A DNA stretch of 64,000 bases from Dictyostelium discoideum (taxonomy: Eukaryota), in NCBI GenBank assembly GCA_000004695.1, contig CM000151.3, positions 3,968,001-4,032,000 of the forward strand. Reading direction: 5' to 3'. Positions 7,526-27,550 of the stretch are shown here, in pieces; position 1 is the stretch's first letter, and the number at the start of each line of letters is the position of its first letter. Both the position numbers and the translations under genes were made by a program. The notes beneath the pieces are model-generated. The model searched no databases and was not told where the DNA came from. It saw only the letters and a list, made by a program, of their open reading frames with translations.

Positions 7526-7880
7526 TTTTTTTTTTTTTTTTTTTTTTCCCCTTTTACTTTTATATTATATAAATATAGAATAATATAAAAAAAAAAAATA
7601 AACAAATAAATTAAAAAAAAAAAAATTAAAAAACTAAAAAAAGTGTGTGGACAAAATGAAAAATGATGAAAATTTTTTTTTTTTTTTTTAAATTTACAAA
7701 TTTTCACATTTTTTTTTTTTTTTTTTTTTTTTTCAATTAATTTATTGGAAAAAAAGATTTTTTTAAAAAAATTTTTCCGATAAAAAAAAGGTTGTAAACG
7801 AACCCCCAGTTAAATAATAACAACAACAATAATAATAAAAATAAACACTATATAATATATATATATATATTTATAAAATA

Positions 7881-8616: not shown

Positions 8617-8667
<51 letters not shown>

Positions 8668-9235
8668 AAATGTGTTGGCTTTTTGTTTTTTTAAAGAGAT
8701 TCTTTTTATATATATTCCAAATTTTTTTTTTTTCCATTTTTTTCCTGTGTATTTGGATGATATATTTTTTAAATTTCTTTTTGATATCTTTTAGAAATAA
8801 CATTTAAAAAAAAGATTTTTTTTTTTTTAAGATTTTTTTATTTTCTAAAAATGGTCAATGCAGGTTAAAGTTTTTTTTTATTTTATTTTATTTTTTTTTT
8901 TAGTTTTTTTTTTATTTTTTTTAAAAAAACTTTTTTTTATTTTTTTCCTTTTTTAATTATTTTCTTTTACAACACTCGTGGTTTAAAAACTTATACACTC
9001 ATAAGTTAAAAAAAATAAAAATAAACTAGATACATTTCTTAATACTCTTTTTTTTTAAACAAAAAAAAAAAAAAAAAACCAAAAATAAAAACAAAAAAAG
9101 AAATAGTATAATAGAAATAAAAAAAAAAAATAAAAAAAATAATAAAAAAAAAATAAATAAATAAATAATAAAAAAATATATTTATAAGAAAAAGGAATTG
9201 TTTTAAAATTAAAAAAAAATAAAAAAAAAAAAAAA

Positions 9236-12091: not shown

Positions 12092-13225
12092 TTAATGATA
12101 TAAACCAACTATATCTTTAATTATATTTAAATTTTTATTTGCAATTTTATTTGCTTTTTCAGATCCTTGTAATAAAATATCTCTAACTAATTTCGGATTT
12201 GATTGATAATAATTAATTTTTTCACGAATTGGTGATATATTTTTAATGATTGAATTTGAAAGAAATTCTTTAAAGATTGCGTTTGATTTATCTTTAAATT
12301 CAGATTGTAAATCAGTGATTGGTATACCAGAGGTTTCAGATGCAATTGATAATAGATTTGAAATATCAGGACGATTAATTGGATCATAGGTTATACCAAT
12401 GATTGTATCAGTTTTTGATTTTTTAATTTTTAATTTAATTTGATCATCAGTATCTGTTAATGAAATTCTTGAAATCTCTAATGGATCAGATTTACTCATT
12501 TTCAAACGACCATCTTGTAAACTCATAATTCTTTTAGATTGCTCAGAAGTTATAATTGAGGGATATGGAAAGAATTTACTCTTGAAATTACTGTGAAATG
12601 CTTGTGCGATATCTCTGGTGAATTCTAAATGCTGAGTTTGGTCCTCGCCTACTGGTACATGTGTGGCTTTATACAATAAAATATCGGCAGCCATTAAAAC
12701 TGGATATGATAAAAGTCCATTTGAAACTGATGCTTCGTTTGATGATTTAGTTTTCTCTTTAAATTGAATCATATTACTTAGCTTTGAAAATGAGGTAATA
12801 CAATTTAAAATCCAAGTTAACTCTGAATGTGCTGGTACCATTGATTGATTAAATAAAATCACCTTTTCTGGATCAATTCCACATGCTAAATAATTTATTG
12901 CAACTGAAATAGTATTTGATTGTAATTCTTTTGGTGATAATGATTTAGTTGATGTTAATGAATGTAAATCAACAATTGAAAATATTAATTTATGTTTTTC
13001 ATTTATTTTTGTAGATTGTGATGATGATGATGATGATGATGATTCTGATAAATTTAATAATTCCTCTTCTTCTTTATTATTTTTTGTAACTAAATCTTGA
13101 ATTTTTAACCAATTACCCATTGCACCTAAATAATTACCTAAATGTAATGCTGAACTTGTTGGTTGCATACCACTAAATACTGTAACTTTAGTTTTATCTT
13201 TAAAATTAACTTCATCAATTTTCAT
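12092..13225 (-). CDS. Tryptophanyl-tRNA synthetase, bacterial/organellar type (probably mitochondrial).
   Basis: The 377-aa ORF carries 'KVTVFSGMQPTSSALHLGNYLGAM' (HIGH-region variant; compare E. coli TrpRS '[21 protein letters not shown]'), 'VPVGEDQTQHLEFTRDIAQAF' (GxDQxxH) and 'KMSKSDP' (KMSKS). A poly-S/E low-complexity insertion is present. Its 3' end converges on acgA with only about 80 nt between the stop codons. Confidence 0.85.
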   Translation of the reverse strand: MKIDEVNFKDKTKVTVFSGMQPTSSALHLGNYLGAMGNWLKIQDLVTKNNKEEEELLNLSESSSSSSSSQSTKINEKHKLIFSIVDLHSLTSTKSLSPKELQSNTISVAINYLACGIDPEKVILFNQSMVPAHSELTWILNCITSFSKLSNMIQFKEKTKSSNEASVSNGLLSYPVLMAADILLYKATHVPVGEDQTQHLEFTRDIAQAFHSNFKSKFFPYPSIITSEQSKRIMSLQDGRLKMSKSDPLEISRISLTDTDDQIKLKIKKSKTDTIIGITYDPINRPDISNLLSIASETSGIPITDLQSEFKDKSNAIFKEFLSNSIIKNISPIREKINYYQSNPKLVRDILLQGSEKANKIANKNLNIIKDIVGLYH

Positions 13226-13594
13226 AATATTCGGTTTTGTTATAGTTGATGAATTTGTTGTTATTGTTGTTGTTGTTGTTGTTGTTGTATAATTTTTTAT
13301 TGATAATACATTTTTACCAACTCTTTTACATGAGTTATCATATAATAATTTATTCCTTATTTATTTTAATATATCTCTTTTTATTTGAAAATGAAAAATC
13401 CAAAAAAAAAAAAAAAAAAAAAAATGAAAATAAAAATAAAAAACTCGTTGTGATTGTTTTTTTTTTTTTATTTTTTGTTTAAATTAAATTTTTTTTATTT
13501 TTATTTTTTTATTTTTATTTTATTATTATATTTAATATGTTTTTTCAATTTTAATTATAATAATAATAAATTAATAAATTAATAAATAACTTTT

Positions 13595-16975: not shown

Positions 16976-17012
<37 letters not shown>

Positions 17013-19187: not shown

Positions 19188-20660
<1,473 letters not shown>

Positions 20661-21395: not shown

Positions 21396-22691
<1,296 letters not shown>

Positions 22692-22734
22692 TGAGCTAAA
22701 TGGGAAAATGAATTTAAAATTATTACAAACTCCA

Positions 22735-23848
22735 TTAAAATATTGGGAAATTCCAATTCAAGCCATATAAAAACAAATTCACCAACTCCAATGGTGTATA
22801 AAGTTCATCAGTATAAGAATTCATTTCTAATTGATTTTTTAAACCTAGATATATATCACCACTTATGTTTGCAGTTAAAATTGAGTTTAATCTTAATAAA
22901 TGCTTTGGTTTTTGAATGTTTGGAATGTTTTTAACCCAAAATGGGTGTGACGGTTTAAGGAATTTTGAAATTAATTCTTTCATTGAATTATCTGTATCAA
23001 TTACTAAACCTTCACAAACTAATTGAACACAACCATCTTTTTTTATAAATTTAGGATTAGTTTGTGATTTTCCAACCGAACTTGCATAATACCTTAATGC
23101 TGATACTGCTCTATTTTTATATTGTTCTACTTCTTCATTTTCACTTACCAATACATTATAAACATTTAATTTCTTAAAAATTAATTCATTTTCATTTTCA
23201 ATTTCATTTTCATTTTCATTTTCATTTTCATTTTCATTTTCATTTTCATTTTCATTTTGAATTTCATTTCCAATTTCATTTTCAATTTTATTTTTAAAAT
23301 TATTTTTATTTTCAATTTTATATTCAGAAAATCTAATGAATTGTTCAATTTTATTTGATAATTTAAATTTGTTTAAACCAGTTGGTGCTGGTAATTTTGT
23401 AAAAAAAATTTTTTCTTCTTTTGAATTACTTAAAATTAAATCTCTTAATAGTTTATAATTGTATTCACCAGTTTCTTCATTATAAAGTGGTTTTGTAAAT
23501 TCTGATAAAGTTTTAGTTTCTTTATTGAAATTTATATTTTCATTGATGAATGAAATATACCCTGAAATTAAATTTTCTACTGTGCAACCACTAACTTTTA
23601 CAAAATGATCAGTACCACCTAAAATCCAAAGATTTGCAAAATCTACTAAAATTTGTCTACCAACACCATTTTGAAAATTAAGATCTTTAAAATCAATTTC
23701 TTTAGAAATGGTTTCACCAATTATAAATCTTTGAATAGATTCTTTAAGTTTATCAACATCAGTTATTAAATCTGATTCCTTATTCCAAATATTAATTGAT
23801 TTATTTTTTGCTAATATTGAAAATAAAATTACATCTGAATCACTTTTT

Positions 23849-23879
<31 letters not shown>

Positions 23880-24659
23880 TTAATTATTAATAATTTAAAT
23901 TATAATAATAATAATTATTATAATATTTACCTTGAATAAATTAAAATTGGTTCTCTAGGTTTAATATTATCACTATTAATCATTTCAAAAATTTTCCATT
24001 CACCTTCACCATAACGATCATGTGGTGAAATATAAACATTTTCTAAATCTTCGAAATAACCTTTCCACTTAAAATTTTTAGTAATTGAATATAAAATTGC
24101 TTTTACATAACCCATAGTATCTGTACCTGATGTAAATGAATCTGATGTATAACATTTATCTTCAACTATTGATGATTGATCAAACCAACTATCTTCAACA
24201 AGTTGAAGATCTGATTTATTTTCATCTCCCTCTTGTAAATTTAATTTTTTAGTATTAAGTTTATGTAAAAAATTTGGTAATGCATCATTCTAAAAAATAT
24301 TTTTTGAAAAAAAAAAATTATTAATATTATGAAGAAAATAAAAAAATAAAAAAAATAATAATTACTTTAAATCTTCTATCTTTTTGCTCACTAAATTTTG
24401 ATATTGGACCTGGACCATCAACTGCAAAGAAAATTGATTTTTCAACATCAACCTTATCAAAAAGTGAATAGATTTGTAAATTTACAATATCAAATAAAGT
24501 TCTATCTGGTTTTGTTTTAGAATATTTGTATTTTCTATACAATAAATTATTTACATCAACGAATAAATGATCAACCTTTATTTTTCCATTACCCCTTTCT
24601 TTAATACATGTACCTTGGAATTTTGAATTTATAAATCCAGATAAACCTGGCACTGTCAT
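22735..24659 (-). CDS. XRN-family 5'-3' exoribonuclease-like protein, catalytic N-terminal region. Three exons at about 24366..24659, 23931..24289 and 22735..23842.
   Basis: Exon 1 is 'MTVPGLSGFINSKFQ...VDHLFVDVNNLLY...IFFAVDGPGPISKFSEQKDRRFK' (XRN_N motifs: Mg-binding Asp, 'AIDGVAPRAK..QQRSRRF' equivalent). Exon 2 has 'YGEGEWKIFEMI' (the PGEGEHKI equivalent). Exon 3 opens with 'ILIYSSDSDVILFSILA' (the GLDADLIMLGL equivalent). Acidic active-site residues appear conserved. The donors are GTAATT and GTAAAT. The exon-3 ORF is open from 23842 to the stop at 22735. Confidence 0.55.
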
Positions 24660-24985: not shown

Positions 24986-26203
24986 TTAATTTATTTTAAT
25001 AAAATTATTATTATTAAAATCTTTTAAAATTGAATAAAATATAAATGATTTTTTAAAAACTATTGGATTAATTTGATTCTTTTGATTAATATAATGGTTA
25101 TATAATTTCTCTAAAAATTTCTTTATAAATTCATTGTTATTATTATTAATATTATTAATATTATTATTATCATCAATGAAATTATTATTAATTGTAATTA
25201 AAATGAATAAAATGTTCAAAAATGATATTTGTACTCTCCAATGTTGATTTAAATCAATCATATTAATCATTACACTTTCATTACAATTATCAATTAAAGA
25301 TAGTGATAAAATAGGTTGCTGTTTAATTATTCTATAAAATGCTGAACTTGATGAAATTTTTATATTATTATTTAATTCATCTTCTAAATTATTATCATCC
25401 TTTATATATTTTAAAAATTGATTCAATAATTGTTTACTTTTAATTGAAAAATATTTTATATAAATTGGACGTGTTATTAATAGATTATCAAATGTTTTAA
25501 TTAAATATAATAATATAGTTTTATCAATTGCTTTATTTGTTGTTATTATTGAACTAAGTGAAATTTGTGGAAATAATGATGGATTTGGTATTGATGATAA
25601 TAATGATGGTGAAGTAGATGATGGCGATGATGGCGACGATGACGATGATGACGATGATGGTGGTGGTGATGAAGATGGTGATGATGAATCATTTATTAAA
25701 AATAAATTTAACAATGTGTTTATATATTTCTCTAATGAAAGTATACCCCATTTAGTTGAAAGTGTAATTTCATCCAATGTTGAAAAATAAAATAAAATTT
25801 CACCAAATGTTGATACTAATTTCCTTTTTAATGATAATTGTATATTATTATTATTATTAAAAGATGATATTTCATTATTTAAGTATTCTAATAATTGTAT
25901 TATTGAATCTTTTGAATTTATTGATAGGTTATTTGACTTTCCAATAATTATACCTAATAAATGAATAATTTTTACTTTTATAATTGTATCATTTGAAATT
26001 TTAATTTGTTGTACTAATTGTTTTATTAATATCGTATGTTCATTTATTATTATTAATAATTTTTCAATAATTGATGAATATTGATTATTTGATAATAATA
26101 ATAAATCTATTAAATAATTTAATAATGTTAATTTCGTAATAATTGTAGTTTTAGTTTTAATAAATTTTGATATAAAATTAAAATATTCAATAATTTCTTG
26201 ATA

Positions 26204-26281
<78 letters not shown>

Positions 26282-26607
26282 TAACAATTGTAAATCTTTA
26301 ATTGTTTTATTAAAAATTATTGGAACTGAAGAAGAAGAAGAGGAAGAACAAGATGATAAAGATGATAAAGGTGGTGATGATGGTCTATTTGGAGATATAA
26401 TTGGAGAAGCTTCAAAATCAATTGAATGATCGAATTCACTAATTAATCTTGTAAAATTATTATTTTCAATTAAATTTGAAAAATCATTTAAACTATTTGT
26501 TTGTGAAATATTTAATGGTGGAATTTTCACTTTATTTAACCTAATAACTTGATTTTCTAAATTTGGTGATGATATATTATTTGGTTGTTGTTGTTGTTGA
26601 AATGATA

Positions 26608-26680
<73 letters not shown>

Positions 26681-27145
26681 ATTTAAAAGTTGTAAAGTTG
26701 TATTTGAAGATTTATTTATAATTTCATTTACTTGTTGAGTTTGTTGATTTTTGAAAAATGGATGAATAAATAATTTTGGCCATGTTATTCTTTTTTGAGG
26801 ATTTTTCTCTAAAATTTTTGAAATTAAGTCATTGAAATGTTGTTGTTGTATTAAATCATTATTATCAGATGGTAATCTAATGATTGGATCTAAATAATTG
26901 TCGTATATTATTGACTCTATTAATTTGGTTGCATCATTAGAGTAGAATGGATAATATCCAGTTATACATTTAAATAGTAATACACCAAATGACCAAATAT
27001 CTGATGAAAAACTATATGTATATCCTTTTAAAACCTCTGGTGATAAATAATAAATTGATTCATTTATATTATTATTATTATCATTATCAATATTATTATT
27101 ATATAAATTAAATATTTGTTGTCTTGATGTTATCATTATTTGTTG

Positions 27146-27214
<69 letters not shown>

Positions 27215-27550
27215 TTCAATTAAAATTGAATTATTTATTGAATTTAATTTAAATATTCCTTTTGAATCAATTAAAATATTTGATGGTTTTAAATCAGCAT
27301 ATATAATATTATTAGAGTGTAAATAGTATAAAGCATTCATTATATTTTTTGAGAATATAATTGAAGTATCAATTGATAAATATTGATCAGAATTTAAAAA
27401 TTCTTTAAATGAATATTCAAATGATATTCTTTTAACTAAATAATAAGTACTTAAATTTTCTTTAACATTTTCATCAACATAATTTATTTGATCTTGATTT
27501 TGATTTTGATGATCTGATTTTATTCTTTTAAATGATTCTTTTATTGGCAT
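24986..27550 (-). CDS. Protein kinase-like (probable pseudokinase) domain followed by a long helical/low-complexity C-terminal region (SCY1-like architecture?). A candidate upstream exon lies at about 27762..27921.
   Basis: The catalytic-loop equivalent is 'IIYADLKPSNILI' (HRD replaced by YAD). DFG is replaced by 'FKLNSINNSILIE'. An APE-like 'YYLSPEVL' and helix-F 'SDIWSFGVLLF' are retained. No GxGxxG loop is seen. The upstream ORF 27626..27982 contains 'MKISNYYIVEDFDISEEN...YVAKARKQ...' ending at a GTAAAT donor. That could be the missing N-lobe, but its phase does not join cleanly to M27550. Confidence 0.6.

Follow-up and report, generated by a model that had tools for sequence, protein, structure and literature searches.

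A single surplus C, best explained as a reference error, splits an XRN-like nuclease gene of Dictyostelium discoideum

In the D. discoideum chromosome 2 reference, an open reading frame (ORF) for an XRN-type catalytic domain abuts an Asn-rich ORF in a different frame, which raises the question whether the locus holds two genes, a broken gene, or one gene that is misread in the reference. The stretch analysed, 64,000 nucleotides of contig CM000151.3, is referred to as the window; the gene lies on its minus strand. Three-frame translation of 24800-21300 showed that the XRN_N-bearing frame closes at a TAA at 22737-22735, as an earlier note on this DNA, made from the sequence alone, had placed it (stop at 22735). 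The downstream frame, +1 relative to the XRN_N frame, carries a TGA at 22760-22758, is open from 22757 only, and has its first ATG at 22691, at the head of an ORF of 431 codons. These positions bore out the coordinates given earlier for a second ORF in another frame (Met at 22691, open to about 22757), and the overlap, put at about 20 nt, is 23 nt by sequence. The upstream-frame part of the interrupted exon contributes 368 open codons from 23841.

The break was compared with four other D. discoideum-group assemblies, GCA_054859355.1 (L003), GCA_054859385.1 (L004), GCA_054859205.1 (L005, 'D. cf. discoideum') and GCA_054883475.1 (L006/L007), from a Nanopore plus Illumina set that includes the AX2-214 laboratory strain and tropical isolates (Holland et al., PNAS 2025; PMC12745789). 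Assembly DNA was fetched around the Trp-tRNA synthetase genes, and the junction, 9.5 kb away, was covered; the complete gene copy in GCA_054883475.1 (L007, 4012-7271) was reached via the neighbouring RING/ZZ gene at window 19188-20660. At 22747-22745 the window reads TTTCCCAAT (CCC), whereas all four other assemblies have TTTCCAAT (CC). Over the wider junction the four read TGGAATTT-CCAATATTTT and the window TGGAATTTCCCAATATTTT, and CC keeps the frame unbroken (...GLNWNFQYFNGVCNNFKF...). Annotation gives products of 947 aa in GCA_054859355.1, 989 in GCA_054859385.1, 940 in GCA_054859205.1 and 1032 in GCA_054883475.1. With CC, the window sequence likewise gave a continuous ORF of 1032 codons in three exons, the same as the annotation in GCA_054883475.1; the check proposed earlier, translation after 1-nt indels, was thus answered by the loss of one C.

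The surplus base lies in the CC doublet of TGG AAT TTC CAA TAT TTT AAT. In the corrected frame the bases of the TAA fall inside TTT-AAT (Phe-Asn), and CC brings back a Tyr that is conserved in the family (WNFQYF). As the window is written, the frameshifted upstream product is 586 aa long, and 446 further codons fall in the +1 frame. The codon for this Tyr, TAT at 22742-22740, is in the +1 frame, 5' of the TAA, and the Trp is in the upstream frame; the lesion therefore lies in TTCCCAA and not at the stop codon. Judged from sequence comparison, the two abutting ORFs are the halves of one XRN-type exonuclease gene split by one surplus C.

The whole gene runs from 24659 to 21396 (minus strand), with three exons and a 1032-residue product. 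Exon 1 (24366-24659, ATG at 24659) encodes the start of XRN_N with the catalytic Asp35 and Asp81 and ends at a GTAATT donor at 24365. Intron 1 (24290-24365, 76 nt, GTAATT...TTTTAG) has 6.6% GC. Exon 2 (23931-24289) encodes the middle of XRN_N with the GEGEWK motif (Glu193, Glu195). Intron 2 (23843-23930, 88 nt, GTAAAT...AAAAAG) has 2.3% GC and is 85 nt long in GCA_054883475.1. The upstream-frame part of exon 3 (22748-23842) carries SDSDVIL (Asp219, Asp221), LVDF...GGTDHF and the start of the G-L-N-W-N-F motif. Frame is lost at the CCC run with its one surplus C (22745-22747; CC in four of four other assemblies), which cuts the XRN core motif G-L-x-W-x-x-x-Y-[FLI]-x-G-x-C-x-[DN]-[FY] (22720-22764; GLNWNFQYFNGVCNNF with CC), and the spurious TAA (22735-22737) exists only through this frame error. 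The +1-frame remainder of exon 3 (21396-22744) carries FKFIFPF plus PLPFYPLLFSHML (XRN conserved region 2), the SQLTFQPT motif, an Asn-rich tract at about 22290-21500, a conserved C-terminal tail and the stop at 21398-21396. This exon structure, applied to the GCA_054883475.1 copy, yielded exactly its annotated 1032-aa product. No second copy of the gene (paralogue) was found within the 64-kb window. In the family alignment the C-terminal tail is common to the D. purpureum orthologue and, weakly, to others, which ties the Asn-rich ORF to the XRN-like gene.

Sequence inserts and ends vary in this family. A (GAAAAT)n repeat (window ~23190-23262) encodes NENENENE between two conserved regions of the XRN core, as part of a larger insert that is absent in all homologues from other genera. 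The homologues end, after unalignable low-complexity sequence, in a short basic/hydrophobic tail (window 21396-21460), whose last residues are ...FKSLKLVKKLNK (D. discoideum), ...FKLIKKL (D. purpureum), ...LGLLKK (Synstelium) and ...RVLRLL (Acrasis). This tail may serve in targeting or in an interaction.

Membership in the XRN family is clear for the N-terminal part: residues 1-237 matched positions 1-238 of the 241-position XRN_N profile (Pfam PF03159; E=3e-41, 141.8 bits against a cut-off of 22.9). The Pfam XRN_M model gave no match to the single D. discoideum sequence, nor did the junction segment alone match an XRN in the PDB; detection of homology there needed a family profile. An exhaustive HMMER search with the conceptually frame-corrected protein returned single-chain homologues from D. 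purpureum (XP_003293585.1, 727 aa), Polysphondylium violaceum (KAF2078160.1, 875 aa), Synstelium polycarpum, Acytostelium subglobosum (XP_012756148.1), Planoprotostelium fungivorum and Acrasis kona, plus two eukprot entries. The set spans five other dictyostelid genera and two amoebae of more remote descent. A word-index protein search (corrected 737 aa, 288-aa junction segment, 394-aa N-terminus) gave zero matches although relatives exist, and this index is evidently blind here; the 586-aa upstream, 431-aa downstream and 1007-aa intron-spliced models were absent from the protein collection by exact look-up. We found no paper on this XRN-like gene or on recoding in Dictyostelium.

Nine residues, D35, D81, E193, E195, D219, D221, K88, Q92 and R96, do not vary among the nine sequences of the family alignment; they match the DxN, DG, GEGEHK and DxD motifs of XRNs with known structures. 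We take Asp35, Asp81, Glu193, Glu195, Asp219, Asp221 and the Asp of LVDF to be the published Xrn1 catalytic residues, and Lys88, Gln92 and Arg96 to form the 5'-phosphate pocket. With these catalytic and pocket residues conserved, the protein is probably an active 5'-3' exonuclease.

The junction itself falls inside an ungapped conserved block of the nine-sequence alignment, in which Trp581 is invariant. The family profile matched K. lactis Xrn1 (3pie_A) in one stretch that runs across the junction (E=1.5e-57; profile 1-523 to chain 1-596). In this profile alignment the junction block falls on 'GLqWVLyYYyrGCpsWsWYYryHYaP', NNFKFIFPFSSMNRY, directly 3' of the junction, corresponds to the Xrn1 'WsWYYryHYaP' motif, and PLPFYPLLFSHML aligns to the next motif along, 'PFkPFqqLMaVLP'. 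The earlier suggestion that the downstream ORF holds XRN conserved region 2 and belongs to the same gene agrees with homologues that are continuous across the junction; its pairing of PLPFYPLLFSHM with XRN 'YPYHYAPFASD' was in the wrong register, PLPFYPLLFSHML falling on 'PFkPFqqLMaVLP'.

How the surplus C arose was examined through the other differences between the window and GCA_054883475.1. Within the gene (window 24659-21396) there were 0 substitutions over 3264 aligned nt; the sole differences in the GCA_054883475.1 copy were one C fewer at the junction and 3 T fewer in the intron-2 poly-T. Over 21.3 kb the two were 99.67% identical, with 43 difference events, 28 substitutions among them. 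When these substitutions were polarised by the three more distant strains, the outgroups shared the GCA_054883475.1 base at 26 sites and the window base at none, and 2 were uninformative. Because GCA_054883475.1 carries no derived change and the poly-Asn repeat lengths are equal, the two presumably share a laboratory lineage; by elimination and from this lack of derived differences, GCA_054883475.1 is presumably AX2-214. Laboratory strains of one lineage are expected to show true differences much more sparsely than 43 per 21 kb. If two strains had really diverged, the changes should split about evenly between the branches, and the one-sided 26:0 polarisation argues for sequencing error in the window. 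Differences on the window branch amount to ~1.3 substitutions per kb, mostly A/T transversions, and form clusters in two 50-nt patches (window 8714-8665 and 7786-7736). The clustering, doubled G/C and A/T transversions look typical of poor read ends and not of mutation.

With the other differences error-like, the surplus C most probably belongs among the reference errors, and we consider it very likely that it is a base-calling error of the Sanger-era reference with no biology behind it. CC would have been written as CCC at 22747-22745, and the frame pushed into the TAA eight bases on; the 446 codons left in the +1 frame would then give the appearance of two abutting ORFs. The real gene would be intact, encoding a nuclease of 1032 residues with all catalytic acidic residues. 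Counting against such an error, the surplus C stands alone, 1.5 kb from the next difference and outside the obvious low-quality clusters. Nanopore sequencing can shorten homopolymers, a possible bias of the comparison assemblies; it is very unlikely, though, that all four would miscall a 3-base run identically and that a conserved ORF would result in every case.

Other parts of the window differ from the comparison assemblies as well. Further single-base doublings (GG for G, CC for C) stand at 16976, 13400 and 7747, against all other assemblies. The intergenic 50-nt patches at 8665-8714 and 7736-7786 hold 10-12 differences each from the near-identical assembly; in both, the three more distant strains side with that assembly and the window shows smeared A and T runs. 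The quality of the chromosome 2 reference is probably low in both patches. By exact look-up, the ORF at 12092-13225 is XP_643957.1 (377 aa), the mitochondrial Trp-tRNA synthetase of D. discoideum AX4, and the window is evidently AX4 reference sequence. At 13355-13357 (minus strand) the window has AGG, and the four other assemblies all have ATG, which starts a Trp-tRNA synthetase of 406-421 aa (MNKLLYDNSCKRV...) in them; the window frame is open through the AGG (...*IRNKLLYDNSCKRVGKNV...). XP_643957.1 probably lacks 44 N-terminal residues, likely a presequence, through reference error. A second difference, T to G at 13317, replaces Val by Gly in the N-terminal extension of the same protein. Just upstream of the XRN-like gene, a kinase-like ORF of 854 codons (24986-27550) has a 921-aa counterpart product in L007 (762-3696); the kinase-like gene probably has an extra 5' exon that is invisible as an ORF in the window.

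Strain relationships were also visible. L003 and L004, labelled D. discoideum, show ~91-92% nucleotide identity to window 2076-23378, and 'D. cf. discoideum' (L005) ~83-93% over the same segment, values that fit the cryptic species suggested among these isolates (PMC12745789). Logan contigs of SRR26869266/7 (L001, L002) match exons 1-2 without substitutions and end in intron 2 before the junction. They lack 8 nt of intron 2 (window ~23917-23924; GTAAATAATTATT... against GTAAATATTATAATAATTATT...), where L007 has the window version, which indicates another D. discoideum stock or strain.

Selection at the junction was gauged from 288 codons around it. dN/dS was ~0.33 in five of the six strain pairs, and there were no stops. 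The sixth pair, the near-identical strain against GCA_054859205.1, gave 0.92, to which a 2-codon indel in the alignment may contribute. Values of ~0.33 in most strain comparisons indicate that the junction region is under purifying selection. A decayed pseudogene or paralogue was rejected: there was no other lesion, there were 0 substitutions against the near-identical strain, and dN/dS was mostly ~0.33.

An alternative to a reference error is that the one-base insertion is real and private to the AX3/AX4 laboratory lineage. AX4 would then make a 586-residue protein that breaks off halfway through the XRN core and has no tail, or nothing stable at all, and its locus would be a unitary pseudogene or null allele of very recent origin, the gene being kept in AX2 and wild strains. 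The CCC does stand in the window, outside any visibly degraded stretch. The representative search gave only short ORF fragments and no D. discoideum model, as pseudogene annotation would have it; the missing model is weak evidence, however, since the 1032-aa models of other strains were likewise not returned. The two likeliest prokaryote-style ORF calls of the frameshifted version (138 aa and 82 aa) had no match in read-assembly contigs. Against a private insertion, all 26 polarisable substitutions fall on the window branch, in clusters, an implausible pattern for mutation between laboratory strains of common origin; the surplus C is of the same class as the doubled G/C at 16976, 13400 and 7747; and 3.26 kb of gene hold no second lesion. 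We therefore regard a private insertion as unlikely. It is quite improbable, too, that the reference strain is a natural truncation or null mutant in which a little full-length protein is perhaps made by +1 slippage at UUU UAA. If it were, the most-used reference strain would be without an XRN-like exonuclease that is specific to dictyostelids and still present in AX2 and wild strains.

Programmed +1 ribosomal frameshifting is a further rival. At the 'shifty stop' UUU UAA (22740-22735), Phe-tRNA would re-pair on the overlapping UUU and translation continue with AAU GGA, giving ...NWNFPIF-NGVC.... The context ATA TTT TAA TGG permits exact P-site re-pairing beside the stop, the two frames differ by +1 as required, and +1 frameshift sites of comparable form are known in prfB and antizyme. 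Yet the site is unconserved, the four related assemblies and all homologues having a plain continuous ORF. The conserved Tyr is in the +1 frame 5' of the shift site, and homology changes frame at the CCC. Moreover, the folding energy of the 105 nt downstream is in the range of shuffled sequences (MFE -13.1 kcal/mol, z=0.11). Frameshifting is hardly credible here.

We also asked whether a short spliceosomal intron could join the frames. The earlier note had reported no in-phase GT...AG pair; exhaustive enumeration near the junction found several, though all were rejected as introns. Examples run from GTTTTT at 22774 to the TTTAG at 22696 (79 nt), from GTTGGT at 22786 to 22696 (91 nt), from GTTTTT at 22774 to 22684 (91 nt) and from GTGAAT at 22782 to 22623 (160 nt), all on the minus strand. 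At 24-27% GC they are exon-like, compared with 6.6% and 2.3% in the two introns of the gene, and their donors (GTTTTT, GTTGGT, GTGAAT) are unlike the GTAA.T donors of those introns. Splicing would remove the invariant Trp581 and the conserved Y-x-G-x-C motif. In the other strains the ORF is continuous without an intron, and in GCA_054859205.1 the acceptor at 22696 reads GG, not AG. The probability of such an intron is close to nil. Equally far-fetched are two independent adjacent genes, an XRN_N gene and an Asn-rich gene starting at ATG 22691, since the downstream ORF, although it has an ATG and 431 codons, overlaps the upstream one with no intergenic DNA between them and completes the XRN core, whose two halves homologues hold in one chain together with the tail. 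Among the four explanations first offered for the locus, a frameshift in the assembly thus gained support, from the C missing in four assemblies, and a decayed paralogue, an unusual splice and two adjacent genes did not.

We conclude that the XRN-like gene is ordinary in kind, and that its frame break, real in the window, is best explained by a one-base error of the reference. At this locus the reference should carry one gene model of three exons and 1032 codons in place of a broken gene or pseudogene. This chromosome 2 stretch holds other probable errors, such as the lost start codon of the Trp-tRNA synthetase; frameshift, pseudogene or recoding candidates in the D. discoideum genome should be checked first against the newer assemblies. 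The predicted product is a lineage-restricted, highly diverged protein of the XRN family, and Dictyostelia and some other amoebae retain this third, highly diverged XRN-type nuclease in a seemingly catalytically intact form.

Compared with Xrn1/Pacman and Xrn2/Rat1 (for example K. lactis Xrn1, PDB 3pie), the D. discoideum protein is alike in XRN_N and in the catalytic and 5'-phosphate residues, and its second conserved region is collinear with that of Xrn1, the GLxWxxxY..GxC and PFxPFxQLMxVLP-like motifs included. It is nevertheless very divergent from Xrn1/2, with an XRN_N identity of about 25-30%, and beyond the core it is far smaller than Xrn1. It has NENENE and long poly-Asn inserts specific to D. 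discoideum, as well as a C-terminal tail not found in Xrn1/2. The dictyostelid orthologues, named 'Xrn1 N-terminal domain-containing protein', have the same end-to-end architecture, the junction motif (WNFNYFMGKCNDF in D. purpureum) and the C-terminal tail; those of D. purpureum and Polysphondylium violaceum are 28-35% identical to the D. discoideum protein, without the frame break and without NENENE. Kinetoplastids have XRNB, XRNC and XRNE as lineage-restricted, highly diverged extras beside canonical Xrn1 and Xrn2 (PMC5862402, PMC3854532). The amoebozoan XRN group resembles these in being a lineage-restricted, diverged addition to Xrn1/Xrn2, and appears to be a lineage independent of the kinetoplastid extra XRNs.
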